This document shows, piece after piece, positions 11,529-49,279 of a stretch of DNA of 64,000 nt. Source of the stretch: Clostridia bacterium (lineage in GTDB: Bacteria; Bacillota; Clostridia; TANB77; CAG-508). Within the stretch, counting starts at the first letter, position 1; every line of letters begins with the position of its first letter. A program made the position numbers and the translations under genes. The stretch covers positions 271,242 through 335,241 of the forward strand of contig JAFRNM010000001.1 in the NCBI GenBank assembly GCA_017430135.1, written 5' to 3'. The notes under the pieces were generated by a model. It did not search any database, was not told the DNA's origin, and saw only the letters and a list, made by a program, of their open reading frames with translations.

Positions 11529-13259
11529 ATGAAGAAAAATAAAAAATTGGTAATTGCTATTGTAATAATTATAGTATTAATTCTTATTGTTGGAGTTGCA
11601 TTAGCATTTGTAATGAAAAAGAATAATAAAGATGCATTTTTCGAAAGTGTATCACAATTATTTGATAGTGAAAATGGTTTTATAGATAATAGAATAGAAA
11701 ACTACAATCAAAAAAAGGCTTCAAATCCTTTTGAAAATACTGGAAAAATAACATTTAATGTACCAACAGAAGGCATGGACACAAAAACAGCAGATGAGAT
11801 AAACAACACATTCAACATCAGTTTTATGGGAAATATAGATGCTCCAAATCAAAAAGCAGAAGAGTTAGTTAAAATAAACTATGATAAAGATAACAATTTC
11901 CCAATTTTATACAAAAAATCAGGAGATATACAAGCTATTAAATTAAGCAAAATCACACCAAAATATCTAGGATTAGATTTTAGTAAAAATATAAATATAA
12001 TTCCATTTGCTGAATTAAATGGAGAAAAACTAAATTCATTTGAAATAACTCAATCAGAAAAAAATAAAATAAAAACCGAATATTTACAAATAATCAAAGA
12101 TAATCTTGAAGATAAAAACTTTACAAAGGTAACAACTGAAGAGTCAAATGGATATGTATTGGAAATATCAAATAAACAATTACAAGATATTATTGTAAAA
12201 CTTATAGAAAGATTAAAACAAGACGATGAGTTTTTAGAAAAGTTTAGTTTAACTGCTGATAGCTTGGATTCAGTATTAGATAATATCAATTTAAATGAAG
12301 GAAAAACAATTATAACAATTTATCAAAAAAATCAAAAAGTTAATAGAATTATATTAGAATTAGATGACTTCATGAAAATTGATGTAAAAAAACTTGAAAA
12401 TGATAACGAACTAAGCTATGATATTAGCTTAACATTTGGCCAAGAAAATAGTAATATTATTGCAAAAGCAGTTATTGGCTTTACTGGATTAGACTCACTT
12501 GAAACTGTAAATGAAAACTATAATATTGGAATAGATTTTAATGGTTATAGTTATACTTATAATATTGAAAACGAAGTAAACTTTACAGATGACATAGAAA
12601 TAAAAGATTTTGTAGATAAAGAGTATGTTGATATAAATACATTATCTCAAACAAATCAAGCAAAACTATTCCAAGCAATTGTAGAAAGATTTAACAAAGC
12701 TAACAATGAGCTAATGCAAAAAGTAAAAATAGATCCTAAAAATTTCTGGTATAATCTTGTACCTAAATATTCTGCATCAGAAATAGATGCAGATAAAAAT
12801 GATTATTCATTGGATTTAGATAATGACGAAGATGACGAGAAAAATACAATATCAAACACAACAAATACTAACAGTACAGCTAATACAACGTCAAACACAA
12901 CAAATACAACTAATATAGCAACAAGTAGTAATACAACAAATACAACAACAAATATCAACGAATCATCTGATGATAACCTTGCAAAATCTTTCACAGAAAC
13001 AGAGAAAAATGTATTCAATTCAAAATATGAAAAATACAAGGGAGACGAAGTAGAAGGAAGCAAAGTAAAACAATTAATAATGAATATAATTGCAAACAAC
13101 ATGGCAGACGAAGAAAGACAAATAAAAGTTACAGGAGATGTAACACTTACCGGAAACGAAGTTCCAGATAGCATAGAAACTACAAAAAAATATTCAGTAG
13201 AATTTAAAAAATCAAAAGAAGGCTATGTAAACGAAGCTGTGATAAAAGAAGTAGAATAG
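11529..13259 (+). CDS. hypothetical membrane-anchored protein with Asn/Thr-rich low-complexity region
   Basis: N-terminal TM helix. NTTNT-rich tract near the C-terminus. RBS AAAGGGGAAAA. Confidence 0.5.
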   Translation: MKKNKKLVIAIVIIIVLILIVGVALAFVMKKNNKDAFFESVSQLFDSENGFIDNRIENYNQKKASNPFENTGKITFNVPTEGMDTKTADEINNTFNISFMGNIDAPNQKAEELVKINYDKDNNFPILYKKSGDIQAIKLSKITPKYLGLDFSKNINIIPFAELNGEKLNSFEITQSEKNKIKTEYLQIIKDNLEDKNFTKVTTEESNGYVLEISNKQLQDIIVKLIERLKQDDEFLEKFSLTADSLDSVLDNINLNEGKTIITIYQKNQKVNRIILELDDFMKIDVKKLENDNELSYDISLTFGQENSNIIAKAVIGFTGLDSLETVNENYNIGIDFNGYSYTYNIENEVNFTDDIEIKDFVDKEYVDINTLSQTNQAKLFQAIVERFNKANNELMQKVKIDPKNFWYNLVPKYSASEIDADKNDYSLDLDNDEDDEKNTISNTTNTNSTANTTSNTTNTTNIATSSNTTNTTTNINESSDDNLAKSFTETEKNVFNSKYEKYKGDEVEGSKVKQLIMNIIANNMADEERQIKVTGDVTLTGNEVPDSIETTKKYSVEFKKSKEGYVNEAVIKEVE

Positions 13260-13272
13260 TTATAAAAAATCA

Positions 13273-13303
13273 AAAAAAGCATATAGTAATATATGCTTTT
13301 TTA
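13273..13303 (+). terminator. rho-independent terminator (aaaagcatata gtaat atatgctttttt)
   Basis: Near-identical hairpin recurs at 16869-16902. Confidence 0.6.
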
Positions 13304-13336
13304 TATTAATCTTTTTAAAAATATCTGCCATTTTTA

Positions 13337-13365
13337 TTGACAATTTTTTAGTAAAAATATACAAT
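13337..13365 (+). promoter_or_regulatory. sigma-A-like promoter (TTGACA, 17 bp spacer, TACAAT) driving the pilin-like gene through a structured leader of about 150 nt
   Basis: Hexamers and spacing read directly from the sequence. Confidence 0.4.
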
Positions 13366-13522: not shown

Positions 13523-15274
13523 ATGACAAAATTTAACTTAGAAAAATGCAAAAGTGGTAATAAAGGTATAACACTTATTGCATTAATAATTACGATCATT
13601 GTTTTATTAATATTAGCAGGAATAACAATAAATTCATTAACAGGAAGTGATAGTGCACCAGCCAAAGCAAATGAGGCTGCACAAAAAAATGACATAGGTA
13701 CAGCAAAGGACGAAATAAGTTTATTAGCTGTAAATGCAAAAACAGAAGGCTATGAAACAGCCTATGTAGGAAATGGGGTATCAGCTGGAGATGCATCAAA
13801 AACAGTAGGACAAGCTGTAATAGATGCAGTAAAAGCAAAAAACGGAACAAATGTAGGAAAAGCATCAATAAGTGTGGAGCAAACAACAAAGAATGAAAAA
13901 CCAGATGATGCAAAAATAACAATCACAACAAGAGATTTTGAAGTTATAGGAACAATAACTATCAATGATGGAATATTAACTTGGGGAGAAGTTGAGGCAA
14001 ATATTCCAGGAATAAAAGATGTGCCAGAAACTTTAACTATGGATACTGGGGAAACAAAAACAATTAATGCAACACTAAAAGGAATTACAGGTACAATTAC
14101 TTGGACAAGTTCTGATGAGGATGTTGCAACAGTTTCTAATGGTGTTATAAGAGCAGCAGATACTTTAAAAGTTAATGATCAACCAGTAAATACTGCAACT
14201 GTAATTATAACAGCAACATTAGGAAACTATAGTGAGTCTTGTAATGTAACCGTACATAAAGTAGTAGTTGGAGATATTGTTAATTATGCACCAAGTAGAA
14301 CATATGATTGGAATTGCAATTTAGCAGAATCTGGTGATAATGCTAGTACTGCAATAAATACATTAAGTAGTGGAGAAAATGGAGCACATAGAATAACTCA
14401 ATGGAAAATATTAAATTATAATCAAAGCACAAAAATGGTAGAAATGGTTCCAAGTGAAGTTCCAACAAAGAGTAGTACGAACAGGTTGACATTGAGGGGA
14501 GCACAAGGATATAATAATGCTGTATATTTATTAAATAGCGCATGCAATAGTCTTTATGGAAAGGGTACAACAATAACTGCTAGAAGCATAAATGAAGAAG
14601 ATTTTATAAATGCAAGTGCAATAGATAATACTGATACAGACAATGGCGGAAATAAATGGTTAAATTATAGAGAAAAAACTTATGAAAATTCAAGTGTAAA
14701 AAATGCAAATAATACAAATGTTAAATATGGACAACAAAAAAATGGAGCAGCATATACATTATCATCATATAGAAATTATCCAGTAATGTATGCTTATGAT
14801 TATAATTCTGTAATTACACCAGAACCAACATTATCAACAGCTACAGCAAGTTTAGCTAAGAGTTTAGGATTAAGTGTTCAAAATAATCCAATATCAAAAA
14901 CACAAGATAGTGATTCAGGAAAAGATGGTTATAAAAAAGCTTCAACAAGTATTCAGCCATATCAAACATATTATAAAACAGGTAGTAATAGTACAACTAG
15001 AGGATTATTAGATAGTGAAAAAGCTAATGTATTAGTACCAGATGGCAATTCACAATATTGGGTGGCTTCGCGTTGCGTGAATCTGGGCAGCAGCGGTTGT
15101 AGCTTCTATGTTCGCGATGTGAACTCTGGGTACTTGAATGCTACTTGTGTATTCAGCTCTGAAACTAGCACTCACAACCCTGCGTGCGCGCTTTTCCCCG
15201 TAGTTTCTCTAAGCTCTGAACTCTTAGAACCATCATCTGCATCAGGAGTTGCTTGGGAAGTAGATGCAAATTAA
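13523..15274 (+). CDS. large surface protein with pilin-like N-terminal segment (KGITLIALIITIIVLLILAG), Big_2 Ig-like domain and GC-rich variable-region-like C-terminus
   Basis: AAAGGAGAAA RBS. N-terminus resembles the prepilin cleavage/methylation motif but has Ala instead of Glu at +5. ITWTSSDEDVATVSNGVIRA matches the Big_2 signature. Last 70 codons are markedly GC-rich. Confidence 0.6.
   Translation: MTKFNLEKCKSGNKGITLIALIITIIVLLILAGITINSLTGSDSAPAKANEAAQKNDIGTAKDEISLLAVNAKTEGYETAYVGNGVSAGDASKTVGQAVIDAVKAKNGTNVGKASISVEQTTKNEKPDDAKITITTRDFEVIGTITINDGILTWGEVEANIPGIKDVPETLTMDTGETKTINATLKGITGTITWTSSDEDVATVSNGVIRAADTLKVNDQPVNTATVIITATLGNYSESCNVTVHKVVVGDIVNYAPSRTYDWNCNLAESGDNASTAINTLSSGENGAHRITQWKILNYNQSTKMVEMVPSEVPTKSSTNRLTLRGAQGYNNAVYLLNSACNSLYGKGTTITARSINEEDFINASAIDNTDTDNGGNKWLNYREKTYENSSVKNANNTNVKYGQQKNGAAYTLSSYRNYPVMYAYDYNSVITPEPTLSTATASLAKSLGLSVQNNPISKTQDSDSGKDGYKKASTSIQPYQTYYKTGSNSTTRGLLDSEKANVLVPDGNSQYWVASRCVNLGSSGCSFYVRDVNSGYLNATCVFSSETSTHNPACALFPVVSLSSELLEPSSASGVAWEVDAN
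15059..15103 (+). repeat. VR-like segment: 27-nt exact repeat tgggtggcttcgcgttgcgtgaatctg plus GGC AGC AGC GGT TGT AGC, inside the 3' end of the pilin-like gene
   Basis: Pairs with 15348-15392. All five mismatches in the aligned 16 nt are G here versus A in the downstream copy. Confidence 0.5.
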
Positions 15275-15299: not shown

Positions 15300-15328
15300 T
15301 TCAGCCCGCCCTGTGTGGTCGGGCTGAA
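15300..15328 (+). terminator. GC-rich stem-loop (ttcagcccg ... cgggctgaa) plus A/T run, immediately 3' of the VR-like segment
   Basis: 9-bp stem. Its position matches the hairpin found 3' of DGR variable regions, and it may also terminate the transcript. Confidence 0.45.
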
Positions 15329-15347: not shown

Positions 15348-15392
15348 TGGGTGGCTTCGCGTTGCGTGAATCTGAACAGCAACAATTGTACT
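15348..15392 (+). repeat. TR-like / ancestral 3'-end copy: same 27-nt repeat followed by AAC AGC AAC AAT TGT ACT (AAC-rich), truncated by a partial GGGACAC element
   Basis: Non-coding. It has A wherever the coding copy differs. Confidence 0.45.
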
Positions 15393-15413: not shown

Positions 15414-15899
15414 TAAATTGCCTAAAGTTTCTAAAACAAACACCTTCCAGAAACATCAATAAAAAAATTAATAAATAAAAAATATTTACAAAGACTAATA
15501 CCATGTTTGGTAAAAGGGATGTATGATGAAACCATTTTGGAACAAATTAAGAATGGGGAGTTTGATGCTACAGAAAATGAGGGGCAGTACACATTTGTCG
15601 AATTTTGTCGATGAGTTTTTCTTGAATTTTAGCACATTATGTGGTTTAATATATTTATTAAATTGCATAATGTGCAATTATTTATGAGAATTATAAAATT
15701 TTTTTATCAAGATTAATTCTAAATAATTATTTCAAATTTTTATATTATGAGAAATTTATTTATTCAAAGATTATTTCCCAATTGTATTAAATTTATTTTT
15801 TATACCTATAAAAATCCAAGAAAAGAAAAGTTTTAAGAAAGGAGGCCTTCATATAGAAATTATGCAATTTAAAATATATAAACAGAAATGGAGAAATAT

Positions 15900-16817
15900 A
15901 TGAAAGAAAGTATAAAATTATTAAGCCCTAAATTAGATGTGGTGTTTCAAGCGCTATTTGGAGAAGAAGGGAGCGAAAGAATTACAAAAGCTTTTTTGGA
16001 AAAGATTCTAGATACCACAATAGATACAATTGATTTAAATCAAAATGTTATTTTAAGAAGAGATAAAAAAGATGAAAAATTAGGAGTGTTAGATGTTTTG
16101 GCTAAAATCAATAAAAATGAGAATGTAGATATTGAGATGCAAATAGCAGAAAATGAAAATATATTAGATAGAATGGTTTATTATTGGAGTAGGTTATATG
16201 TAAGAAGTATAAAGAAAAAAGAAGATTATACTAAACTAGAAAAGAGTATTGTAATACTTATTTCTAACAAAAAAGTAAAGGGGTTAGAAGAGCTTGAATG
16301 TCATACTGAATGGAAGATATATGAAGATAAATATAAGAAAAAAATCTTGACAGACAAGTTTGAAATACATATAATAGAATTAGAAAAAATAAAAAATAAC
16401 ATTAATAGTGTTAGTGATGGATTATTAGATTGGCTAGCTTTTTTACAGAATCCAAAAACCGAAAGGGGAATCGAGAATATGGATAGTAAAGATTCAACAG
16501 AAAGAATGAAAAATCTTGAAATAATTGAAGAAGCAAGAGAAAAATTAAGAAAATTAAGTGAAGATCCGCAAATGCAACAATTAGCATGGTGGAGAGAAAA
16601 AGGGATTTATGAAGAAAATGAAAGAATAAGTAGAGAAAAGAAAATAGAAGAAGGAGAAAAAAGACTGGAAGAAGGAGAAAAAAGACTAGAAGAAGGAAAG
16701 AAAGAGTTAGAAGATGAGAAGAAAGAATTTGCTAAAAGATTAAAAGAAGGCGGAATTTCTATTGAGGAAATAATAAAATACACACATCTTACGAAAGAAG
16801 AAATAGAAAAGTTATAA
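15900..16817 (+). CDS. Rpn family recombination-promoting nuclease / putative transposase (YhgA-like, PD-(D/E)XK)
   Basis: N-terminus LLSPKLDVVFQALFGEEG... typical of the Transposase_31/Rpn family. GGAG RBS before ATG 15900. C-terminal coiled-coil tandem EEGEKRLEEGEKRLEEGKKELE. Confidence 0.7.
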   Translation: MKESIKLLSPKLDVVFQALFGEEGSERITKAFLEKILDTTIDTIDLNQNVILRRDKKDEKLGVLDVLAKINKNENVDIEMQIAENENILDRMVYYWSRLYVRSIKKKEDYTKLEKSIVILISNKKVKGLEELECHTEWKIYEDKYKKKILTDKFEIHIIELEKIKNNINSVSDGLLDWLAFLQNPKTERGIENMDSKDSTERMKNLEIIEEAREKLRKLSEDPQMQQLAWWREKGIYEENERISREKKIEEGEKRLEEGEKRLEEGKKELEDEKKEFAKRLKEGGISIEEIIKYTHLTKEEIEKL

Positions 16818-16868
16818 AGAACGGATGCATTTGGATGCATTTTCAAAACTACATAGTTATAAAAAATA

Positions 16869-16902
16869 AAAAAAAGCATATAGTAATATATATGCTTTTT
16901 TT
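16869..16902 (+). terminator. rho-independent terminator, near-identical to the one at 13273
   Basis: aaaagcatatagtaatatatatgcttttttt. Confidence 0.55.
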
Positions 16903-16917
16903 GAAAGAGATGAAAAA

Positions 16918-17778
16918 ATGGATTATATTTTAAATGCCTTGCCTAGGCAAATTGCAAATGAAATTATACAAGTTTTTAGTACATATTCAAGTTTAATAAA
17001 CACCTTGCAGGAGATACGAATTAGGGTTTCCAAGCCAATAATTTTAAAGCAAAGAAATAGTGATATAGTATTACAACACATAGTTACAAACGAAGAACTT
17101 TTACATATATTAGAACGATTTTGTGAAAACTCAATATATGCCTATAAAAATCAGATATGTGAAGGCTTTTTAACAATAAAAGGTGGACATAGAATAGGGA
17201 TAACGGGTTCATGTGTAATAGAAAATGGAAAAATAATAAATATAAAATATGTATCAAGTTTGAATATAAGAATAGCAAGAGAAGTTAAAGGTTGTGGTAA
17301 TGCAATAATAAATGAAATAATTGATATTGACAATCAAACAATATTAAACACACTATTAGTATCACCACCAGGAAAAGGAAAAACAACAATGCTAAGAGAT
17401 TTGGTTAGACAAATAAGTAATGGAATAAATGAAATAAAATTCAAAGGGAAAATAGTTGGGCTAATAGACGAAAGAGGAGAACTTGCAGCATGTTACAGAG
17501 GAATTCCACAAAATGATGTAGGAATAAGGACAGATGTAATTGAAAATGTGTCAAAAGAAAAAGGAGTAGAAATATTGCTCCGTTCAATGGCTCCAGAGAT
17601 AATAGCATGTGATGAAATAGGTACTCACGAAGATGTCCAAGCAATAGAAAAAATGTTAATTTCTGGTGTAAAGGGATTATTTACAATGCATGGAAATAAT
17701 CTGGAAGATATTAAGAAAAATACCGAAATTAATAAATTAATTGAAGAAAATCAGATTGAAAAAATTATAGTTCTTTAA
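16918..17778 (+). CDS. spoIIIAA: stage III sporulation protein AA (ATPase)
   Basis: Walker A PPGKGKTTMLRDL. First gene of an eight-gene spoIIIA operon. 286 aa. Confidence 0.85.
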   Translation: MDYILNALPRQIANEIIQVFSTYSSLINTLQEIRIRVSKPIILKQRNSDIVLQHIVTNEELLHILERFCENSIYAYKNQICEGFLTIKGGHRIGITGSCVIENGKIINIKYVSSLNIRIAREVKGCGNAIINEIIDIDNQTILNTLLVSPPGKGKTTMLRDLVRQISNGINEIKFKGKIVGLIDERGELAACYRGIPQNDVGIRTDVIENVSKEKGVEILLRSMAPEIIACDEIGTHEDVQAIEKMLISGVKGLFTMHGNNLEDIKKNTEINKLIEENQIEKIIVL

Positions 17779-30686: not shown

Positions 30687-31685
30687 ATGGACGAAAATAA
30701 TCTAATGAGTCCCAATATAGAAAGTACACAAGAAGAGAGACTAGAAAATTCTTTAAGACCGCAAACATTAGAAGAATATATTGGACAAAGTAAAGTAAAA
30801 GAAAATATGAAAATTTATATAGAGGCTGCCAAAAAAAGAGAAGAGGCTTTAGACCATGTTCTTTTATATGGACCTCCAGGGCTTGGAAAAACTACGCTTT
30901 CAAATATTATTGCAAATGAAATGGGGGCAAATATAAAAATAACATCTGGTCCTGCAATAGAAAAACCTGGAGATTTAGCTTCAATTCTAACAAATCTTTC
31001 TGAATATGATATTTTGTTTATAGATGAAATACATAGAATAAATAAGAATGTAGAAGAAATTTTGTATCCCGCAATGGAAGATTACACATTAGATATTATG
31101 ATAGGAAAAGGACCAAGTGCAAGGTCAATAAGACTTGATTTACCGAAGTTTACTTTAATAGGTGCAACAACAAGAGCAGGTTCATTAACAACCCCTCTAA
31201 GAGATAGATTTGGAATTGTACATAGACTTGAATTATATTCAATTGAAGATTTAACAACAATTGTAAAAAGAACAAGCAAAATATTAGAAGTTGAAATAGA
31301 AGAAGATGCGGCAGTAGAAATTGCAAGACGTTCAAGAGGAACACCTAGAATTGCAAATAGGTTATTAAAAAGAGTTCGTGATTATGCAATGGTCTTAGGA
31401 GATGGAAATATTACTCTAAAACTTGCCAAAATGGCTTTAAATAAGCTTGAAATAGATGAACTTGGCTTGGACGAAATAGATAGAAAAATACTAGACACAA
31501 TGATAGTACAATATGCAGGGCGCCCAGTAGGAATAGAAGCATTAGCAGTAACAATAGGAGAAGAAGTTGAAACAATAGAAGATGTATATGAGCCATATCT
31601 AATCCAATTAGGCTTTATTGCAAGAACAATACGAGGAAGACAAGTACTTCCACCAGCATATAAACATTTAGGGTATGAGGAGTAG
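30687..31685 (+). CDS. ruvB: Holliday junction branch migration DNA helicase RuvB
   Basis: [25 protein letters not shown] Walker A, sensor motifs. 332 aa. Confidence 0.88.
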
Positions 31686-31690
31686 TGAAT

Positions 31691-34000
31691 ATGATAACTG
31701 AAGAAAAATTAAAACAAATTTGTGATGAACATAATATTAATTGTAAAAAAATAATTCAAACTAATCCTAATATTTTGGAATATGGCGATACTAATGATAT
31801 TTTATATGTATTAGACTTTTTAAAGCAAAAATTAAATATAGAAAGTAAGAATATAGAAAAATGTCCAAGTATTTTATGCTTGGCAATAGAAAATGTAAAA
31901 AATAATTACATGTTCTTGAAAGAAAAAGAAATAAATGAAAATGATGTTGAAACATGTTTACATATATTATCAACAGAACCTATAGAATTAAGAAAAACGT
32001 ATGAATATATAGAAGAAAATTATGGATTAGAATATTTAAATAAATATACAAGTATTTTAAGAGTTAATGAAGAAAGAATCAAGGATATAGAAAATAGATT
32101 TACAGAGTTTAGTAAAGTTCAAGTGCTTCAAGCATCTATATCAAGAAGAAAAATAGAAGAAATTGAAAAATTAGTAGAAGTATGTAAAAAGAATGAGATA
32201 AAATTAACAGGCTCTGTATTTCCTAAAACAGCAGAAGAAATAGAGAAAATAGTAGAAGTAGCTAAAGAAAATAAAATAGAACTAACAGGTTCAGTGTATC
32301 GAAAGACAGCAGAAGAAATAGAGAAAATAGTAGAAGTATGTAAAGCAAATGAAATAGAACCGAAGGGAAATGTATTTTTAAAAACAGCAGAAGAAATAAA
32401 GAAAATAGTAGAAGTATGTAAAGCAAACGAAATAGAGATAACAGCTTCAGTATTTCTAAAATCAGCCGAAGAAATAGAAAAAATAGTAGAAGTATGCAAA
32501 AAAAATGGAATAGAACCTCAAGGGAATGTATTTAAAAGAACAGCAGAAGAAATAGAGAAAATAGCAGAAGTATGTAAAGCAAATGAAATAGAGCTAACAG
32601 GTTCAGTATTTCGAAAAACAGCAAAAGAAATAAAGGAAATAGTGGAAGCGTGTAAAGAAAATAAAATAGAGCTAACAGGTTCTGCATTTTTAAAAACAGC
32701 AGAAGAAATAGAGGAAATAGTAAAAGTATGTAAAGAAAATAAAATAGAGTTAACAGGTTCAGTATTTCTAAAACCAGCTACAGAAATAGAGAAAATAGTA
32801 GAAGTATGTAAAGCAAATGAAATAGAACTAACAGGTACAATATTTCTAAAAACAGCAGAAGAGATAGAAAAAATAGTAAAAGTATGTAAGCAAAATAAAA
32901 TAGAGCCAAAAGGAAATGTATTTCAAAGAACAGCTGAGGAATTAGAAAAAATAGTAGAAGTATGTAAAGAAAAAAGAATAAAACCTGAAGGATCAGTATT
33001 TAAAAGAACAGCAGAAGAAATAGAGGAAATAGTAGAGGTATGTAAAGAAAATGAGATAGAATTAACAGGATCAGTATTTCTAAAACCAGCAGAGGAAATT
33101 AGGAAAATAGTAGAGGTATGTAAAGAAAATGAGATAGAACTAACAGGTTCAGTATTTAGAAAGACAGCAGAAGAAATAGAGAAAATAGTAAAAGTATGCA
33201 AAGAAAATAAAATAGAGCTAACAGGTTCTGCATTTTTAAAAACAGCAGAAGAAATAGAGGAAATAGTAAAAGTATGTAAAGAAAATGAAATAGAACTAAC
33301 AGGTTCAGTATTTCTAAAATCAGCTACAGAAATAAAGAAAATAGTAAAAGTATGTAAAGAAAATGAAATAGAGCTAACAGGTACAGCATTTCTAAAAACA
33401 TCAGAAGAGATAGAAAGAATAGTAAAAGTATGTAAAGAAAATGAAATAGATATGATAGGCTCTGCATTTTTTAAATCATCCGAAGAAATAGAGAAAATAA
33501 TAGAAGTATGCAAAGAAAATAAAATAGAACTAACAGGTTCTGTATTTTTAAAATCAGCAAAACAGTTAAAAGAAAATGTTGATTATATAAAAGAAGAGTT
33601 TGGAAGTGAGTACTTAATTCCACTTATAGTGTCTAAAAATAATGGAACATTAAAAAAAGTATTGCCATATCTAAAAGAAAAAGGGTATTTAGAATATGTA
33701 AAAGAAAGTGCCTCAATTTTAAGCTTAACATTAGAACAAATACAAGAAAGAGAAAAATTCATAGAACAGCAGGGACAATCGATTATTGATGATAGAGGAA
33801 AATTTAATTCGATATTTGGATTATCAAAAAAGAACTATGAAAAAAGAGTGGCAAAAACAGTAGGAAGGCCTTCAAGCGAACTTGTGGAAGTAATAAAAAA
33901 TGTTCCAGTAAATGAAGTGATAAATGGTAAAAAAGTATTAGATGAAATTACAACAGAAAAAACAAAGGAAGGAGAAACTATAGATGGAGAGAGTCGATAG
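31691..34000 (+). CDS. tandem-repeat protein: about 18 near-identical 26-aa repeats (KTAEEIEKIVEVCKENKIELTGSVFL) flanked by unique N- and C-terminal domains
   Basis: GAGGAG RBS 9 nt before ATG 31691. 78-bp periodicity from about 32150 to 33560 stays in frame. N-terminal domain shows a related motif. Confidence 0.6.
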   Translation: MITEEKLKQICDEHNINCKKIIQTNPNILEYGDTNDILYVLDFLKQKLNIESKNIEKCPSILCLAIENVKNNYMFLKEKEINENDVETCLHILSTEPIELRKTYEYIEENYGLEYLNKYTSILRVNEERIKDIENRFTEFSKVQVLQASISRRKIEEIEKLVEVCKKNEIKLTGSVFPKTAEEIEKIVEVAKENKIELTGSVYRKTAEEIEKIVEVCKANEIEPKGNVFLKTAEEIKKIVEVCKANEIEITASVFLKSAEEIEKIVEVCKKNGIEPQGNVFKRTAEEIEKIAEVCKANEIELTGSVFRKTAKEIKEIVEACKENKIELTGSAFLKTAEEIEEIVKVCKENKIELTGSVFLKPATEIEKIVEVCKANEIELTGTIFLKTAEEIEKIVKVCKQNKIEPKGNVFQRTAEELEKIVEVCKEKRIKPEGSVFKRTAEEIEEIVEVCKENEIELTGSVFLKPAEEIRKIVEVCKENEIELTGSVFRKTAEEIEKIVKVCKENKIELTGSAFLKTAEEIEEIVKVCKENEIELTGSVFLKSATEIKKIVKVCKENEIELTGTAFLKTSEEIERIVKVCKENEIDMIGSAFFKSSEEIEKIIEVCKENKIELTGSVFLKSAKQLKENVDYIKEEFGSEYLIPLIVSKNNGTLKKVLPYLKEKGYLEYVKESASILSLTLEQIQEREKFIEQQGQSIIDDRGKFNSIFGLSKKNYEKRVAKTVGRPSSELVEVIKNVPVNEVINGKKVLDEITTEKTKEGETIDGESR
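32150..33560 (+). repeat. 78-bp tandem repeat array, about 18 units, coding
   Basis: High unit-to-unit nucleotide identity. Generates spurious antisense ORFs. Confidence 0.8.
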
Positions 34001-40627: not shown

Positions 40628-41302
40628 ATGTTAAAAACAACTCGAAAAATTAGAGGAATATATGAAGACATTCAAAAAATGTTATTTTACATGATTCCAG
40701 AAAAATGGGAAGAACTATATTTATATGCTTCAGTAATAGAAAGATTTGGAAATGTTGAAACAGGAGAGCTTTTCTTTTACTACATACCAAAAGGAATATT
40801 AAGAAAAAACCCTGTAAATGTATATGAAATTTCCTCTAAGTTTAATCTTGAAGAAGGCGAATATTTAAGACTTGTAGAACTTTTATATGATAAAATAAAA
40901 GAATTACGAAATGAACATAAAAAACAAGAAAGAAAAACATGGAGTAATTTAACAATAATAATAAAAAATATGAAATTTAGAGTAGAATATGATTATGAAG
41001 ATATACAAAATAGCGAATTTGATAGTTTCCAAAGGCATATAATTTGGAGAAGTAAATATTTAAATATTGGAATGGAAAAAGTAAACAAAGCCGAACGCAC
41101 CATTTTAGAGAGATATTATAACATGGATAGAACTTCAATAAAAACAGATGAATATGAGGAAAACATTTATATTAAGGATGTAAAAAATATGGTTGATTAC
41201 CAAACCGAAAATTATGAGACAATACAAAATGTTGAGTATATGGCGAGTAAGAATGATAAAAAAAGAAAGAATCAGATTTTAATGATGGATGAAGAGCAGT
41301 GA
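40628..41302 (+). CDS. DUF600 / YezG-like immunity-family protein with C-terminal extension
   Basis: MIPEKWEELYLYASVIE...FYYIP...WSNLTIIIKNMKFRVEYDYEDI matches the YezG/DUF600 pattern (IPEEWEKLYLYAEV...WTNLTL). No cognate LXG/YeeF toxin gene lies upstream. Confidence 0.55.
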   Translation: MLKTTRKIRGIYEDIQKMLFYMIPEKWEELYLYASVIERFGNVETGELFFYYIPKGILRKNPVNVYEISSKFNLEEGEYLRLVELLYDKIKELRNEHKKQERKTWSNLTIIIKNMKFRVEYDYEDIQNSEFDSFQRHIIWRSKYLNIGMEKVNKAERTILERYYNMDRTSIKTDEYEENIYIKDVKNMVDYQTENYETIQNVEYMASKNDKKRKNQILMMDEEQ

Positions 41303-41512
41303 TTTTATATCATTGTTCTTTATTTTTGGTTTTTTTATTACTATTTCTTTGCTTAATATTATTATTTTCTGCAACTCCCAACTGCATAAGAAAATCTAAA
41401 AAATTTTTCAAAAATTTTAAGATTTTCTAATTTGTCGGTCCCCCCGAATGTTGCTTGAAAATAATAATATTAAGCAAATCAGAAAAAACGAACAAAAATT
41501 TTAAAAAACTAT

Positions 41513-41541
41513 TGACAAATTTAAATTCATGATATAAAATA
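41513..41541 (+). promoter_or_regulatory. sigma-A-like promoter (TTGACA, 17 bp spacer, TAAAAT)
   Basis: Hexamers read directly from the sequence. Confidence 0.35.
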
Positions 41542-41601
41542 ACACCAGAAAGCGAACAAGACTTCGCAAAACAAATAATCGAATAAATGGAGGGTAATAT
41601 T

Positions 41602-42105
41602 ATGAATTTAGTTAGAGTTAAAAGTGTAGTAAAAACAATAGAAAGACATCCAGTTGAAATACTTGGAAATGATTATAGAGTTAGAATAGAATATAAAAAT
41701 GTTAAAGTTATGGAATTAAATGTTTATGAAGATACAATAAGAATTACTCTTCAAAATAAATATAAAAAAGTAAACAATGAAAAGATGTTAGATTTTGCAA
41801 TAAATAAAATGTATAATGCAATAGCTAAAGTAGAAGTAGAAAGAGCAATGGAAAAAACAAGATTAATGCTTGGATTTGCACCAGAGGATTATAAAATAGA
41901 AAAAATAACAGGCCTTGCAAAATGTGAAGATGGGATTATTACAATAAATCCTGAAATAGTAATGTACAATAGAAATATAATAGACTTTATAGTTTTAAAA
42001 CAATATTTACATCTAAGATACAAAACAGAATGCAAAGGCTATATGAAGCTTTTAAAAGAACATTGTAAAAATTATGAAAAATTTGAAAAAGTCTTGAAAT
42101 TTTAA
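41602..42105 (+). CDS. DUF45/YgjP-like protein lacking the HExxH zinc motif
   Basis: GGAGGG RBS. C-terminal block IDFIVLKQYLHLRYKTECKGYMKLLKEHCKNYEKFEKVLK aligns with the DUF45 block I(D)YVIIHELAHLxHxNHSxxFxxLxxxxPDYxxRxKWLK, but with KQ in place of HE. Confidence 0.4.
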   Translation: MNLVRVKSVVKTIERHPVEILGNDYRVRIEYKNVKVMELNVYEDTIRITLQNKYKKVNNEKMLDFAINKMYNAIAKVEVERAMEKTRLMLGFAPEDYKIEKITGLAKCEDGIITINPEIVMYNRNIIDFIVLKQYLHLRYKTECKGYMKLLKEHCKNYEKFEKVLKF

Positions 42106-42170
42106 TAAGAAATTTGCTATAATAACAATAGCAAATTTTTTTATTATTCGTGACTATAAATTAAATATAT

Positions 42171-42245
42171 TGGGGTGTCGCCAAGCGGTAAGGCATCGGA
42201 CTCTGACTCCGACATTCGTGTGTTCGAATCACACCACCCCAGCCA
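42171..42245 (+). tRNA. tRNA-Gln (anticodon CTG)
   Basis: Cloverleaf with 7-bp acceptor stem tggggtg/cacccca, anticodon loop cuCUGac, T-loop ttcgaat, 3' CCA encoded. Confidence 0.85.
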
Positions 42246-42287
42246 AAAAGAAATCTGTTCGAACTAATAATTCGAGCAGATTTTTTA
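42246..42287 (+). terminator. rho-independent terminator (atctgttcgaa ... ttcgagcagat + T6); member of a repeated terminator family
   Basis: Same arms recur at about 45840 and about 46880. Confidence 0.55.
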
Positions 42288-42314
42288 TTGTGCAAAAAAA
42301 GGTTCGCAAAAGTC

Positions 42315-42343
42315 TTGCTTTTGTTGGTGGAATTTGCTATAAT
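42315..42343 (+). promoter_or_regulatory. sigma-A-like promoter (TTGCTT, 17 bp spacer, TATAAT)
   Basis: Consensus -10 element. Drives the MazF-like gene. Confidence 0.45.
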
Positions 42344-42429
42344 CATGTTAAAAATATCACAATTGTGAAAGTAAGAAAAGTAGAAGATAATAATATTTAG
42401 AAAAAAAATATGTAAAAGGAGAAATGAAC

Positions 42430-42960
42430 ATGGAACCAAACGGACAAGGAACAAATGAAATAGAAAATGATGATAATTCTGCATATGAAGAAGAAAAAGG
42501 AAATGCAGTAGCACATAAAGATAATGCGTTGCAAAAATTAAATGCTTTATTATTAAAATATATTAATAATCCTGAAACTATAGCAAAATCAGATAAATTA
42601 TCATATTGGTTGGAAGACTATTGTAGATATTTAGATTTAGAAGATAAATTTAATCCAAAATTTATGAAGAAATATGAAAGAGGAGATGTAATAAAAGTTA
42701 ATTTAGGATATAACATAGGAAATGAGGAAGGTGGATTACATTATTGTATTGTTGTAGATAAGCATAATTCAAATTTATCTGGAGTTGTAACAGTTATTCC
42801 ACTTACTTCTGATAAAGAAAAAACACCGCGTTTTGCAGATGTAGCGTTAGGAAAAGAAATATACATTAAATTAAATGAAAAATTAGATGCAATAAAATTA
42901 ATAGTTTCAAAAAATATAAATGAAATTAATAAAAATGAAAATGAAACAACTATTTTTTAA
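42430..42960 (+). CDS. MazF/PemK-like endoribonuclease domain protein with about 80-aa N-terminal extension
   Basis: AAGGAG RBS 8 nt before ATG 42430. C-terminal half RGDVIKVNLGYNIGNEEGGLHYCIVVDKHNSNLSGVVTVIPLTS aligns with MazF [26 protein letters not shown]...PTAIVAAIT. Confidence 0.55.
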   Translation: MEPNGQGTNEIENDDNSAYEEEKGNAVAHKDNALQKLNALLLKYINNPETIAKSDKLSYWLEDYCRYLDLEDKFNPKFMKKYERGDVIKVNLGYNIGNEEGGLHYCIVVDKHNSNLSGVVTVIPLTSDKEKTPRFADVALGKEIYIKLNEKLDAIKLIVSKNINEINKNENETTIF

Positions 42961-43286
42961 ATGAAAAATTTTATGAATTTATATGAATTTTGTTTGACAA
43001 AATTCATATAATATATTATAATGTAATTACAAGGTTGGGCGACTTATGTTGACCGCAACATAAATAGAAGACAAAAAGATGACTCGAAAGAGTCATCTTT
43101 TTAATTTCACAACAGAAAAATGCACCAACTGGTGCATTTTTCGTTATATTTATAGAAAACCTTTTAGACAAGAGTAAAGTTATGAAAATAAAAATAATTT
43201 AAATTGCGCAACAGCTGTTGCGCAATTATAGTTAGAATAATAATATGAAAATATAATAAAACCATATCAAAATAAAGTCAGTTAAA

Positions 43287-43508
43287 TTACTTTATTTTAG
43301 GATATGGTTTTTTCTCATCTGTTAATTTAGCAATATAATCAATTGAAGTTTTATAATAATTAGCAAAAATTTTCATAGTATCTAAAGGAATCATTCTTTC
43401 ATCTTTTTCATATCTAATATAAGAATTTTTGGAAATATAAGCTAATTTTGCACAAAAATCTTGAGTTAAATCATTATCTTCTCTTAATTCTTTCAATCTT
43501 GTTTGCAT
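43287..43508 (-). CDS. XRE-family helix-turn-helix transcriptional regulator
   Basis: MQTRLKELREDNDLTQDFCAKLAYISKNSYIRYE is an HTH_XRE motif. GAGGTGA RBS. Confidence 0.7.
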   Translation of the reverse strand: MQTRLKELREDNDLTQDFCAKLAYISKNSYIRYEKDERMIPLDTMKIFANYYKTSIDYIAKLTDEKKPYPKIK

Positions 43509-43552
43509 TAAATTCACCTCAAAAATATTATATAAAAGTTCTCCATATGGGG

Positions 43553-43581
43553 TTGACAAAATACTCCATTTAGGGTATTAT
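43553..43581 (+). promoter_or_regulatory. sigma-A-like promoter (TTGACA, 17 bp spacer, TATTAT) for the second pilin-like gene
   Basis: Hexamers read directly from the sequence. Confidence 0.4.
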
Positions 43582-43618: not shown

Positions 43619-45526
43619 ATGGTAAAAAATGAGAGAAACAAAGGAATAACTTTAATTGCTTTAATCGTAACAATAGTGGTTTTATTGATTTTAGCGGGAG
43701 TAACAATAAATGCAATAACGGGTAGTGAAAGTGCAATGGAGAAAGCAACAGAGGCAAGAGAAAAAAATATACAAGGGTCAGAATTGGAACAAATAAAATT
43801 ATGTGTAGTAAATGCTATGGCTCAGGGGCTAGATGGAAAAGTAAGTGAAACAAATTTAAAAACAGCTTTGAATGGTGTTGTTGCACAATCAGAAATCAAT
43901 AAAATTACTGGAGCAGGTCCTTGGACTATTCAAGGAAATTCTGGTAAAAAATATAGAATTACTAATAGTGGTTTAGTTGATATACTAGATGTTATTACAA
44001 GCGGATTTGATTTTAAATGGCAAGCAGCAACCTTGGATTCATCTAATGGTGTGATTAATACTAATGTATTGAGTGGTTATCCTTTAAATAATTATTTATC
44101 TGACATTTTTTATTTTGATAAAATAAAAATAAATATTTCTGATAATATATTAATTAAAATTGCTTACTATGATGCAAATGGTAATTTTATATCTGCTGAA
44201 CCATGGAAAAGTAAAAGCCAAACAAATTGGTCAAATGGTGGAATAGAAAAAATTACTATAGAAGATTCATATATTAGAATATGTATAGCGGATACAACAG
44301 TAAATAGTACAGGTGCTTATACATTAACATCTGAAGAAATTGCTTCTCGTTTTTCCTATGAAATATATAAAAATAAATTAGAAGAAAATGTTGAAGTGAT
44401 TTCAAGTGGTTTTTATTTTAACTGGAAAACAGCAACTTTAGATTCATCTAATGGTAATATAAATTATAGTGCTAGCAGTGGGGCTACTTTGAATAATTAT
44501 TTATCTGATGTTTTTCATTTTGAAAAAATCAAACTTAATATTTCGGATAATTTATTGATAAAAATTGCTTACTATGATAAAAATGATAACTTTATATCTG
44601 CTGATCCATGGAAAAGTAAAAACCAAACAAATTGGTCAAGCGGTGGAACAGAGCAGATAATAATAGAAGATTCATATATTAGAATATGTATAGCAGATAC
44701 AACAGTAAATAGTACAGGTGCTTATACGTTAACAGATGAGCAATTATCTTCTCGTTTTACTTATGAAATATATGGAAGTGAATATGAACAAAAATCTAAA
44801 ATTGTTTTGCCTGATGTTGAAAAAGGTGAAACAGGTAAAGGATTTACCTGTACAGGATTAACTTACGACGAGACTGATAAATGTTTTTATGTGGGGAATT
44901 ATGGAAAAATGCTACCATCAGATTCTACAATATATAATACTATAGTAAAATTATCTGCAGATGGTAATACAGTTTTAGGAGAGATAAAACTATACGATAC
45001 TATTCCAACAATGACGGGAGATATCCAAGGATTAACAGTTGATTATAGTGATAATACAATTTGGGTTGTAGCATATGCAGAAGGAAAAATATATCATATA
45101 AATAAAAGTGGTACATTAATAGGAACTGTAAATCATACTGGAGCAAATGGAATTGCTTATGATAATCGTACAGATACACTTTGGGTTCTTGCTATTACTA
45201 ATAATGGTGGAAATATAAAAAATATCACTAAATCAGGTGAAACTAATAAAACAATTACTTTTACTGGAATTAGTGCAGTAGACCAAATGTATTTAGATAC
45301 ACAAAGTAATACAATATATTTTTCAGCAGGAGCGAATTACAATTCTAATAATTATATTTATAAAGCTAATTTAAATACAGATGAAATTTCATTATATAAG
45401 ACTTTAGAGGATTCATATGCAATAGAAGGAATATGGATTAAAGACAATTTGCTTTATGTAATGAATGATGGATATTACCATTCAGCAAAATATAGATATA
45501 ACTATATGATGATATATAGTTTATAA
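43619..45526 (+). CDS. large surface protein, paralog of 13523-15274 in the N-terminus (NKGITLIALIVTIVVLLILAG), with two about 130-aa internal repeats and a C-terminal beta-propeller-like domain
   Basis: GGGGGA RBS. N-terminal 45 aa closely similar to the other pilin-like protein. Internal duplication from about 43970 to 44760. Confidence 0.6.
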   Translation: MVKNERNKGITLIALIVTIVVLLILAGVTINAITGSESAMEKATEAREKNIQGSELEQIKLCVVNAMAQGLDGKVSETNLKTALNGVVAQSEINKITGAGPWTIQGNSGKKYRITNSGLVDILDVITSGFDFKWQAATLDSSNGVINTNVLSGYPLNNYLSDIFYFDKIKINISDNILIKIAYYDANGNFISAEPWKSKSQTNWSNGGIEKITIEDSYIRICIADTTVNSTGAYTLTSEEIASRFSYEIYKNKLEENVEVISSGFYFNWKTATLDSSNGNINYSASSGATLNNYLSDVFHFEKIKLNISDNLLIKIAYYDKNDNFISADPWKSKNQTNWSSGGTEQIIIEDSYIRICIADTTVNSTGAYTLTDEQLSSRFTYEIYGSEYEQKSKIVLPDVEKGETGKGFTCTGLTYDETDKCFYVGNYGKMLPSDSTIYNTIVKLSADGNTVLGEIKLYDTIPTMTGDIQGLTVDYSDNTIWVVAYAEGKIYHINKSGTLIGTVNHTGANGIAYDNRTDTLWVLAITNNGGNIKNITKSGETNKTITFTGISAVDQMYLDTQSNTIYFSAGANYNSNNYIYKANLNTDEISLYKTLEDSYAIEGIWIKDNLLYVMNDGYYHSAKYRYNYMMIYSL

Positions 45527-47057: not shown

Positions 47058-48056
47058 ATGAATTTTATTGAAAGCGTAAAAAATAGAGCGAAAGCTAATG
47101 TTAAGACAATAGTTCTTCCAGAAGCGGATGATTTAAGAGTTTTAGAAGCAACTCAAACAATTTTAAATGAAAAATTTGCAAATGTTGTTTTAGTTGGAGA
47201 TGAAGAAGCGATTTTTAATAAAGCCAAAGAAAACAACATAACTATTGAAGGCGCAAAAATTGTTAATCCTGCAAAATCTGAAAAATATGAAGAATATGTA
47301 AATTTATTAGTAGAGCTTAGAAAAAATAAAGGGATGACTGAGGAAGAAGCTAAAAAACTAGTTTTAGATCCAGTGTATTATGGAACAATGATGGTTAAAT
47401 CTGGAGAAGCTGATGGATTAGTATCAGGAGCAGCACATTCAACTGCGGATACATTAAGACCAGCACTTCAAATTTTAAAAACAGCTCCAAATACCAAACT
47501 TGTATCAGCATTTTTCGTTATGGTTGTACCAGATTGTGAATATGGGGAAAACGGAACATTTATATTTGCTGATAGTGGTTTAAACCCTAATCCAGATGTA
47601 GATGGATTAGAGGCAATAGCAACGGCTTCAGCAAAAAGTTTTGAATTATTAGTTGAAAAAAAAGCTAAAATTGCAATGCTTTCTTATTCAACATATGGAA
47701 GTGCAAAATCAGATTTAACTCAAAAAATGATAGATGCTACAAATCAAATTAAGGCTAATAACCCAAATTTAATGGTTGATGGAGAATTGCAATTAGATGC
47801 TGCAATAATTCCGGAAGTTGCTAAAATGAAGGCACCAGAAAGTAAGGTGGCTGGACAAGCCAATGTACTTATATTCCCAGACTTAAATGCTGGAAACATA
47901 GGATATAAATTAGTACAAAGATTAGCAAAAGCAGAAGCTTATGGCCCACTTTGCCAAGGCATTGCAAAACCAGTAAATGATTTATCTCGAGGATGTAGCG
48001 CACAAGATATTGTTGGTGTTGTTGCAATTACGGCATTGCAAGCTCAGAACTTATAA
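47058..48056 (+). CDS. pta: phosphate acetyltransferase
   Basis: 332-aa Pta catalytic domain. Confidence 0.9.
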
Positions 48057-48072
48057 TAGAAAGGATATAATT

Positions 48073-49260
48073 ATGAAGATTTTAGTCTTAAATTCAGGTA
48101 GTTCATCTTTAAAATACCAAGTAATAGATATGGAAAATGAACAAACAATTGCTAAAGGATATTTTGAAAGAATTGGGCAGCCAAATTCATTTCTATCACA
48201 TAAAGTAAATGGAATGAAGCATAAATTTGAAAGAGAAGCTAAAGACCATGAGGAAGCTATTTCATTTGTTCTAGACAGGCTTACAAATGACCACTATGGG
48301 GTTATTAAAGATTTAAGCGAGCTTAGTGGAATAGGACACAGAATAGTTCATGGTGGAGAAAAATTTGCAGATAGTGTTTTAATTACAGACGAAGTAATAG
48401 AAGAAATAAGAAAATGTAGTGATTTAGCGCCTCTTCATAATCCAGCTGCAATACTTGGAATAGAAGCATGTAAAAAAGTAGTACCTAACATGAAAATGGT
48501 TGCAGTATTTGATACAGCATTCCATCAAACTATACCAAAATCAAGATACATTTATCCAATACCATATAAATATTATGAAAATTATTCGGTTCGTAAATAT
48601 GGATTCCATGGCACGTCACATCAATATGTAGCAAACAGAGTAGCTGAAATGCTTGGAAAAGATGTAAAAGATTTAAAAATTGTTAGTTGTCATTTGGGAC
48701 AAGGTGCAAGTATTTGCGCTGTTCAAAATGGAAAATCTGTTGAAACAAGCATGGGGTTAACACCGCTTGGTGGAATTCCAATGGGAACAAGAAGCGGAGA
48801 TTTAGATCCATCTGTGCTAACTTATGTTATGAAAAAGGAAAATCTATCAGCAGATGAAATGGAAGAAATATTAAATAAAAAATCAGGCGTTTACGGTGTT
48901 TCTCGTGTTTCTATGGATTTTAGAGATATTGAATTTGAAGCACTTGTGGGAGGAACACATGCAAAACTTTCTTTAGATATTTTCTGTTATTTAATAGCAG
49001 GTTATATAATGAAATGTGCAGTTGCAATGGGCGGTATTGATGTACTTACATTCACAGCAGGTGTAGGTGAAAAAAGCCCATATTGCAGAGAACACATTTG
49101 CAAAAACTTGGAGTTCATGGGAGCAAAACTTGATTTAACAAAAAATGAAGTAAAAGGGGAAGAAGCAATTATTTCTAAAGATAATTCTTCTATCCAAATT
49201 TGCGTAGTTCCTACAAATGAGGAGCTTATGATAGCAAGAGAAACTATGAAATTAATATAA
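48073..49260 (+). CDS. ackA: acetate kinase (paralog 1)
   Basis: [20 protein letters not shown], and the ATP-binding motifs. AAAGGA RBS before ATG 48073, so the longer upstream extension is rejected. Confidence 0.88.
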
Positions 49261-49279
49261 TTAAAGGAGAGGTTTAAAT

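Follow-up and report, generated by a model that had tools for sequence, protein, structure and literature searches.

Probable modular type IV pilins with Ala5 in a Clostridia bacterium, one of them the target of a decayed diversity-generating retroelement

We analysed a stretch of 64,000 nucleotides from a Clostridia bacterium (contig JAFRNM010000001.1, positions 271,242 to 335,241; this whole stretch is referred to as the window) and studied two large proteins annotated as 'hypothetical protein'. Protein 1 (583 aa; 13523-15274, plus strand) matches MBR0490686.1 exactly, and protein 2 (635 aa; 43619-45526, plus strand) matches MBR0490717.1 exactly. We consider it likely that both are modular type IV pilins whose genes lie outside the pil locus, with a decayed diversity-generating retroelement (DGR) at the gene of protein 1. 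Each of the two joins a pilin module to domains that do not belong to type IV pili (T4P), which is the composition that characterises modular pilins (Raynaud et al. 2021).

A preliminary description of the window, made from the sequence alone, had delimited both open reading frames (ORFs) and given their sizes as we found them. Its reading of the N-terminus as prepilin-type, with Ala replacing Glu5, has held up as well, with the same N-terminus now found on pilin-sized genes in the pil clusters of relatives. Its suggestion that the proteins form a distinct class was not borne out, because the term 'modular pilins' is already in use for large pilins with grafted functional modules. The Ala5 variant is unusual, as is the size of the family, which is lineage-wide and in part diversified by DGRs.

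The N-terminal module and the pil clusters of related genomes

Proteins 1 and 2 align by BLASTP over residues 13-76 and 7-70, respectively (63% identity over 64 aa, E = 2e-19), and no alignment was obtained outside these N-terminal ~64 aa. The two had been described as paralogous, which is true of the N-terminal module and not of the remainder. At the DNA level the two copies of the module carry many synonymous differences, indicating that their amino-acid identity reflects purifying selection; for the same reason, we rejected recent gene conversion as the source of the common N-terminus.

The module consists of a short basic leader, Gly(-1), the motif ITLIAL and a long helix. A six-frame scan of the window returned four motifs of the G-x-T-L-I-x-L type, two of which are followed by a long hydrophobic helix, and these two are the N-termini of proteins 1 and 2 (codons starting at 13565 and 43643). 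Both have the layout of a class III signal peptide, with a leader (MTKFNLEKCKSGNKG, M1-G15, 13523-13567, plus strand, in protein 1; MVKNERNKG, M1-G9, 43619-43645, plus strand, in protein 2) followed by a hydrophobic segment from +1 to +21, and cleavage by a prepilin peptidase is predicted in the same register after Gly15 and Gly9, respectively. The fifth residue after the glycine is Ala in both proteins, in place of the Glu5 that is typical of pilins without strictly defining them. A literature search for the motif 'GITLIAL' found no paper.

Searches with protein 1 or protein 2 gave more than 1000 matches each, most of them alike in the N-terminus alone. A profile of the module (alignment A3), built from 54 diverse N-modules and searched against 1.84 billion 50%-identity clusters, matched 24,337 cluster representatives at E ≤ 1e-10, and at least 425 N-module loci were confirmed in a scan of one genome per species. 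The 80 loci that we examined, several of which may derive from one genome, all come from metagenome-assembled genomes (MAGs), labelled 'Clostridia bacterium' or 'Clostridium sp.', of uncultured organisms of the rumen or of rabbit, chicken and human gut.

Conservation was assessed in 261 unique family members that were selected by similarity, so that the figures are inflated. Within this set, Gly(-1) is found in 98%, preceded by residues rich in Lys, Arg and Asn, and Gly(-1), Ile1, Thr2, Leu3, Leu6 and most positions up to +21 are 97-100% conserved. The conservation of Gly(-1), Thr2 and Leu3 (98-100%) is maintained behind leaders whose length ranges between 6 and 33 residues. At position +5, 98% of the members have Ala and none has an acidic residue, and an amphipathic helix follows the hydrophobic stretch.

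Searched against all PDB sequences, the module profile matched type IV pilins alone (geopilin at 2e-4, MshA, PilA and PilE1), and the alignment places KG/ITLIAL in register with KG/FTLIEL of the solved pilins, cleavage site included. Furthermore, 51 of the 54 family modules match Pfam N_methyl and 42 match GspG, both at E < 0.1.

The ORFs of the examined loci were compared with E. coli HofB, GspE, GspF and GspO as first probes, and then with the Clostridial genes themselves. Twelve of the 80 loci, representing as many MAG assemblies, have a conserved pil cluster. Its gene order is pilM/N-like, two small transmembrane (TM) proteins, one to three tandem pilins, a PilD-like gene, two minor pilins, pilB, pilT and pilC, with Pfam matches to T2SSE for PilB (3.9e-104) and PilT (1.9e-41), to T2SSF (7.3e-27) and to A24_N_bact (1.4e-32). 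The tandem pilins are 132-180 aa long and begin with G/IT[LV][IV]AL, Ala5 included, which is the N-terminus of the family; one pil-locus pilin exceeds the Pfam N_methyl cutoff, at 21.8 bits. By a rough estimate, an N-module and a pil cluster would occur by chance within 10 kb of each other at fewer than one locus.

The link to protein 1 extends beyond the N-terminus. A gene similar to that of protein 1 is found at locus L013, 3 kb downstream of pilC, and residues 13-154 of protein 1 align with the entire 167-aa pilin of that pil locus (L013, 377-880; 46% identity over 157 columns, E = 1e-30), the alignment taking in the C-terminal strands of the pilin. The similarity of protein 2 to the pil-locus pilins is confined to alpha1 (residues 5-66, at most 55% identity).

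None of the 12 pil clusters has a Glu5 pilin at the major-pilin position. A motif scan of the pil-cluster loci returned no canonical Glu5 pilin, and it missed one minor pilin, at L061, that has Glu at +5. Wherever it was found, the pilin just 3' of the PilD-like gene is acidic at +5 (L029, 11437-11880, and nine other clusters), with Asp in nine and Glu in one; in the pilin that comes next, this position is Ser or Thr.

The PilD-like gene of the clusters (L029, 10564-11376; L013, 1012-1824; nine other loci) encodes the Cys-rich N-terminal domain of the A24 family, and the E. coli GspO probe did not detect it in the pil clusters. As these genes carry the A24 N-terminal domain alone, we do not call them prepilin peptidases. 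A stand-alone canonical A24 peptidase, with a match to PF01478 at 1.5e-16 and a GLGDVKL motif, is present in at least two related genomes (L028, 5478-6230; L058, 713-1493), and in two genomes it adjoins aminopeptidase-like and EF-P-like genes, neighbours that were identified by eye. Judged from these domain contents, cleavage and the function of the A24 N-terminal domain may be split between two proteins.

Most copies of the N-module are dispersed among housekeeping genes. With two copies in the 64 kb of the window and ~25 further copies per Mb in the flanks of the loci, dozens per genome are plausible. ORFs with the module are 132-180 aa long in the pil clusters, and the full-length ones elsewhere are mostly ~250-1487 aa long (median 393 aa for all 118). 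The domains attached to N-modules, namely LRR_5, DUF285, FGE-sulfatase, Big_2, Laminin_G_3 and GDSL lipase, are typical surface or binding modules.

Two short ORFs with the module on long contigs, P0224 and P0218 (94-120 aa; L004, 9920-11305, and L006, 10001-11246), each stand directly before an ORF of 286-305 aa that has no Pfam match. Such pairs may have arisen when a frameshift or stop codon split a modular pilin gene, and would then be either pseudogenes or phase-variable genes. We dropped P0224 and P0218 as candidate stand-alone pilins, since they sit among housekeeping genes, have no pilus linkage and are possibly split genes.

Collectively, these results suggest that the N-module is probably the class III signal peptide and alpha1 of the lineage's own T4P; the proteins bearing it would then be cleaved, N-methylated and incorporated into pili. 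Judging from its relatives, the genome from which the window comes probably has a pil cluster of its own.

Domain architecture and the retroelement remnant at protein 1

In the AlphaFold2 (AF2) models of both proteins a long alpha1 is followed by a small beta-sheet, a pilin-like layout. Protein 1 (pLDDT 91.3) starts, after its leader, with a pilin module spanning residues 16-150 (13568-13972, plus strand), in which alpha1N (ITLIALIITIIVLLILAG, with Ala20 at +5) is followed by a long alpha1C, a second helix and a four-stranded sheet (helices 16-31, 45-82 and 88-104; strands 114-145). An Ig-like Big_2 spacer domain comes next (13973-14260, plus strand), and then a C-terminal domain of ligand-binding type (residues 250-583; 14270-15271, plus strand), which is modelled with confidence and for which we found no Pfam match and no PDB sequence match. 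This C-terminal domain also occurs behind another kind of N-terminus (P0027-P0036 and similar), made of a lysine-rich leader, a TM helix and a conserved '...GNGTA.VAKWSFKVNG' motif, suggesting that the binding module has been shuffled between two surface-anchoring N-termini.

Protein 2 (pLDDT 83.3) has a short pilin moiety (residues 10-125; 43646-43993, plus strand) with alpha1 (Ala14 at +5), two short helices and a three-stranded sheet (AF2 helices 12-34 and 37-70; strands 102-126). It is followed by two tandem beta-sandwich repeats (residues 126-260 and 261-385; 43994-44773, plus strand), assigned from the AF2 strands, which are 76% identical to each other (95/125, by self-alignment). The C-terminus is a six-bladed beta-propeller of the SdiA-regulated/YjiK-like and NHL-like kind (44801-45523, plus strand), presumed to be the binding module. 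The beta-propeller-like C-terminus noted in the preliminary description is thereby confirmed, both by Pfam (SdiA-regulated, PF06977, 22.3 bits against a cutoff of 21) and by Foldseek (YjiK, 3qqz, TMt 0.69, together with NHL and YWTD propellers).

Protein 1 is the target of a decayed DGR, a status that the preliminary description had missed. The variable region (VR; 15059-15211, plus strand, residues 513-563) lies at the 3' end of the gene, within the C-terminal domain, is GC-rich and aligns with the pair of VR and template repeat (TR) of a homolog at locus L002. Downstream, a truncated TR (15348-15390, plus strand) retains the first 43 nt alone. It is 88% identical to positions 15059-15101 of the VR, with five of the five mismatches at TR adenines, and homology to the TR of L002 ends at 15390. 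Between the stop codon and the TR lies a GC-rich hairpin (15300-15328, plus strand; -12.5 kcal/mol, z = -4.0), which recurs at L002, where the DGR is intact, with sequence and position unchanged, and which we take to be a candidate DGR target-recognition hairpin.

The intact arrangement is seen in relatives. Downstream of a homolog 71% identical to protein 1 (P0002; L001-L003) come a MutS_I-like gene, bAvd and a reverse transcriptase (RT) gene, and at L002 the VR/TR pair is 153 nt long with 20 of 20 mismatches on TR adenines. In the window, a transposase of the PD-(D/E)XK family (15888-16817, plus strand; Pfam PDDEXK_2, 3.5e-39) occupies the place that the MutS_I-like, Avd and RT genes hold in the gene order of L002, and no RT or Avd homolog was found among the window ORFs. 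The window thus lacks the complete TR, cognate RT and Avd of an active DGR. With the TR cut to 43 nt and Avd and RT lost, the DGR is dead and the VR of protein 1 is frozen.

RTs with adenine-specific VR/TR pairs also follow family members at L077 (32/39 mismatches on adenines), L062 (22/25) and L070 (23/24), so that adenine-specific DGR pairs adjoin four independent members of the N-module family. Intact versions of the DGR (L002, 11486-13871) adjoin homologs on other contigs, in a region resembling an integrative and conjugative element that also encodes ParB, VirD4/TraG, TrbL and an integrase. For protein 2, a DGR was considered and rejected, as the window ORFs include no RT or Avd homolog; no search for VR/TR repeats was made downstream of protein 2.

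The gene of protein 1 occupies a variable site. A repeat search found a direct repeat of ~47-84 nt with a terminator-like hairpin (left copy 13256-13339, plus strand; right copy 16853-16936), and the two copies bracket a 3.5-kb island that holds protein 1, the TR remnant and the PD-(D/E)XK transposase. Conspecific strains, recognised by identical YebC, carry different modular pilins at this site (583, 474, 469 and 447 aa), which have the leader and the pilin module in common and differ in their C-terminal modules; one of them adjoins a frameshifted RT. Other occupants of the site in conspecific strains (L090-L097) are glycosyltransferase genes and an inverted partial copy. Directly upstream, at 11529-13259 of the window, lies a gene whose 576-aa product has a signal anchor and a low-complexity stretch rich in Asn and Thr and matches nothing in Pfam; this gene is kept beside the variable site in all strains seen (L090-L097).

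Assembly, rival explanations and known systems

If proteins 1 and 2 are modular pilins, the preproteins would insert into the membrane via alpha1N, an A24 prepilin peptidase would cut after Gly15 of protein 1 and Gly9 of protein 2, and a PilB/PilC/PilT machine encoded elsewhere in the genome would load the mature subunits into pili. Given the bulk of the modular subunits, a site at or near the pilus tip is most likely. The pilus would then carry the C-terminal modules past the cell wall as adhesins, the load being an Ig-like spacer with a variable domain in protein 1, whose binding domain was formerly hypermutated by the DGR, and two beta-sandwiches with a beta-propeller in protein 2.

More broadly, we tentatively propose that this gut and rumen Clostridia lineage builds a T4P filament from Ala5 pilins, with an archaeal-like core free of salt bridges, and uses alpha1 as a 'plug' for dozens of modular pilins, some of them hypermutated by DGRs. 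With modules that are lectin-like, leucine-rich repeats (LRRs), propellers or enzymes, this would amount to a programmable, hypervariable repertoire of pilus-borne adhesins; taken jointly, we hold these statements to be possible rather than likely. The same adaptation may include the separation of the PilD-like protein from the stand-alone A24 peptidase.

Several observations weigh against assigning the two proteins to T4P. The preliminary description had proposed comparison with prepilin profile hidden Markov models (HMMs), and the outcome is weak: Pfam N_methyl (PF07963) matches the window proteins at 14.5 and 16.7 bits, below its cutoff of 21.2, and TIGR02532 matches neither at E ≤ 1. In NCBIfam no dedicated model matched, with weak GspG- and FliL-type matches alone. 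Furthermore, 52 of the 54 family modules also match the N-terminus of FliL, a plain TM anchor, so that HMM similarity alone does not decide between pilin and anchor, and whole-chain fold searches with the AF2 models are dominated by the Ig or propeller domains. In the PilD-like protein of the clusters, neither an A24 catalytic domain (at a threshold of E ≤ 10) nor a GxGD motif was detected. The scan of the window for pilus genes covered 42 other ORFs between 7.3 and 55.8 kb (54170-54481 excepted; ORFs below 7.3 kb and above 55.8 kb lay outside it) and detected no pilus-machinery gene among them. The earlier remark that no pilus assembly genes are nearby therefore stands for these 42 ORFs; as the relatives show linkage to pilus machinery, the absence is merely local. 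The ~25 extra copies per Mb would mean dozens of bulky modular pilins per genome, far beyond any characterised T4P. Finally, Glu5 is described as absolutely conserved in bacterial T4P, where it forms a salt bridge to the N-terminus of a neighbouring subunit (PMC10710030, PMC10191384), and a subunit with Ala5 may consequently assemble differently or not at all.

In one of the other explanations, proteins 1 and 2 are ordinary Sec signal-anchor proteins and their prepilin likeness is coincidental, in agreement with HMM scores below threshold and with weak matches to unrelated TM anchors such as FliL. We regard this as very unlikely, and the linkage to pil clusters appears to refute it, since the same N-terminus is carried by pilin-sized genes within pil clusters at 12 loci from different MAG assemblies. 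In addition, the leaders vary while Gly(-1) does not, the homology between residues 13-154 of protein 1 and a pil-locus pilin runs end to end, and the PDB matches are exclusively pilins, in register.

An explanation that we find improbable, though far less so than a plain anchor, is that the proteins are processed by the peptidase without becoming part of a pilus, either remaining anchored by alpha1N or forming short pseudopilus-like assemblies. The very high copy number (two in the 64-kb window and ~25 extra per Mb of flanks), the great diversity of the passengers, among them enzymes such as a GDSL lipase, and the dispersal of most copies among housekeeping genes all speak for this explanation. 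Szabo and co-workers reportedly described in 2007 diverse archaeal non-pilin proteins that bear class III signal peptides, which would speak for the same explanation. The conservation of alpha1N, however, at 97-100% for most of +1 to +21 (an inflated figure), goes beyond what anchoring or recognition by the peptidase needs and suggests that alpha1N packs against identical copies within a filament core or a conserved platform. Protein 1 moreover keeps a complete pilin globular module, and the clusters include the retraction ATPase PilT.

Somewhat more probable, but still unlikely in our view, is an arrangement in which the Ala5 subunits, small or modular, are alternative tip or initiator pilins like GspK/PilK or Streptococcus sanguinis PilA. 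No subunit would then sit above an Ala5 subunit, the shaft would be made of the cluster pilin with an acidic +5 ('minor1'), and the two window proteins would be interchangeable caps. The pilin that follows the PilD-like gene is indeed acidic at +5 wherever found (Asp in nine, Glu in one), known pilins without Glu5 are located at the tip, with the absence of Glu5 given as the reason (PMC9934059, PMC10191384), and bulky modules fit best at the tip (PMC8179133). Against this arrangement, the Ala5 pilins resemble major pilins, occurring as one to three tandem divergent copies 5' of the PilD-like gene, and the pilin with an acidic residue at position 5 resembles core minor pilins in having a single copy that is conserved across species. 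A palindromic hairpin after the Ala5 pilins at L029 is a weak sign of a separately expressed major pilin.

Among known systems, the modular pilins of S. sanguinis, PilB with a vWA module and PilC with Ig-like and ConA-lectin modules, are displayed by T4P (PMC8179133, PMC9934059). The window proteins resemble them in their host, which is monoderm, in the succession of class III signal peptide, short pilin module, linker or Ig-like domain and binding module, and in the proposed role of adhesin presentation by T4P, probably at the tip. The short pilin moiety of protein 2 recalls the 'unusually short pilin moiety' described for PilC. Unlike PilB and PilC, two per genome, which have the canonical Glu5 and whose genes lie in the pil operon, the window family has Ala5, is dispersed, probably numbers dozens per genome and includes DGR targets. 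Because the InterPro N_methyl signature mostly fails on the family, the published survey of modular pilins probably missed it.

The bacterial subunits known to lack Glu5 are tip subunits alone, such as GspK/PilK and PilA (PMC9934059). The window family shares with these the absence of an acidic +5, and GspK is also the largest of its set. However, GspK, PilK and PilA are single, conserved, operon-encoded core minor pilins, whereas here Ala5 is found on tandem genes at the major-pilin position as well; a query with E. coli GspK gave no match, and no sequence similarity to GspK was seen. Archaeal type IV pilins likewise do not require Glu5 (PMC10710030), and archaeal class III signal peptides serve many non-pilin surface proteins, an arrangement that may work similarly in the window family. 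Unlike archaeal pilins, the family goes with bacterial PilB, PilT, PilC and an A24 N-terminal domain and has the bacterial G/xTLI register with Thr2, and we do not claim membership among them.

Protein 1 also resembles the variable proteins of known DGRs, such as Mtd of Bordetella phage, TvpA of Treponema and cellular 'membrane-anchored' targets (PMC8144416, PMC5758913). It has its VR at the extreme 3' end, a TR downstream with adenine-specific differences, Avd and RT in intact relatives, an N-terminal membrane segment and adhesion-type domains. It differs from known DGR targets in that its anchor is a pilin module instead of a generic TM helix or signal peptide, and from the systems named in that the window copy is without RT, Avd and most of the TR.

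If the proposed reading is true, the Glu5 rule for bacterial T4P (PMC10710030) would have a large natural exception, which would offer a route to test the need for the salt bridge between Glu5 and the N-terminus. In uncultured Clostridia of gut and rumen, 'hypothetical proteins' numbering in the tens of thousands, from an Ala5 family largely missed by motif-based pilin finders and by the Pfam N_methyl cutoff, could then be annotated as pilus-displayed surface proteins. Furthermore, DGR hypermutation would be tied to type IV pilins, with pilus adhesins as a substrate for targeted protein evolution in the gut.

Genomic surroundings of the two genes

The surroundings of proteins 1 and 2 are chromosomal DNA of a spore-forming member of the Clostridia, with the spoIIIA operon, nrdD, glycolysis genes and pta-ackA, at 29% GC. 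Seven proteins of the window were compared with database entries, and each is identical to a protein of a 'Clostridia bacterium' MAG. As the neighbours are chromosomal housekeeping and sporulation genes, a prophage or plasmid origin of the window was rejected.

A small accessory island (40628-43559) lies 5' of protein 2, between iPGM and LytB, with a GC content slightly below the window average. It encodes a YezG-like immunity protein, a YgjP-like metallopeptidase, a MazF/PemK-like toxin and an HTH_3 regulator, the last of which is divergently transcribed (43287-43559, minus strand).

Just 3' of ruvB, the region 31685-34000 encodes a 771-aa protein composed of ~19 repeats of 30 aa in tandem, with the consensus ELTGSVFLKTAEEIEKIVEVCKENKI. 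This part of the window is a strong outlier in purine skew (GC skew 0.40, AT skew 0.40), and the Pfam matches of the protein are all spurious, low-complexity ones.

At 47058-50479, pta is followed by two tandem genes of the acetate/butyrate-kinase family (427 and 399 aa). The called start of the first kinase gene overlaps pta by ~80 nt, and this start is therefore probably mis-called.

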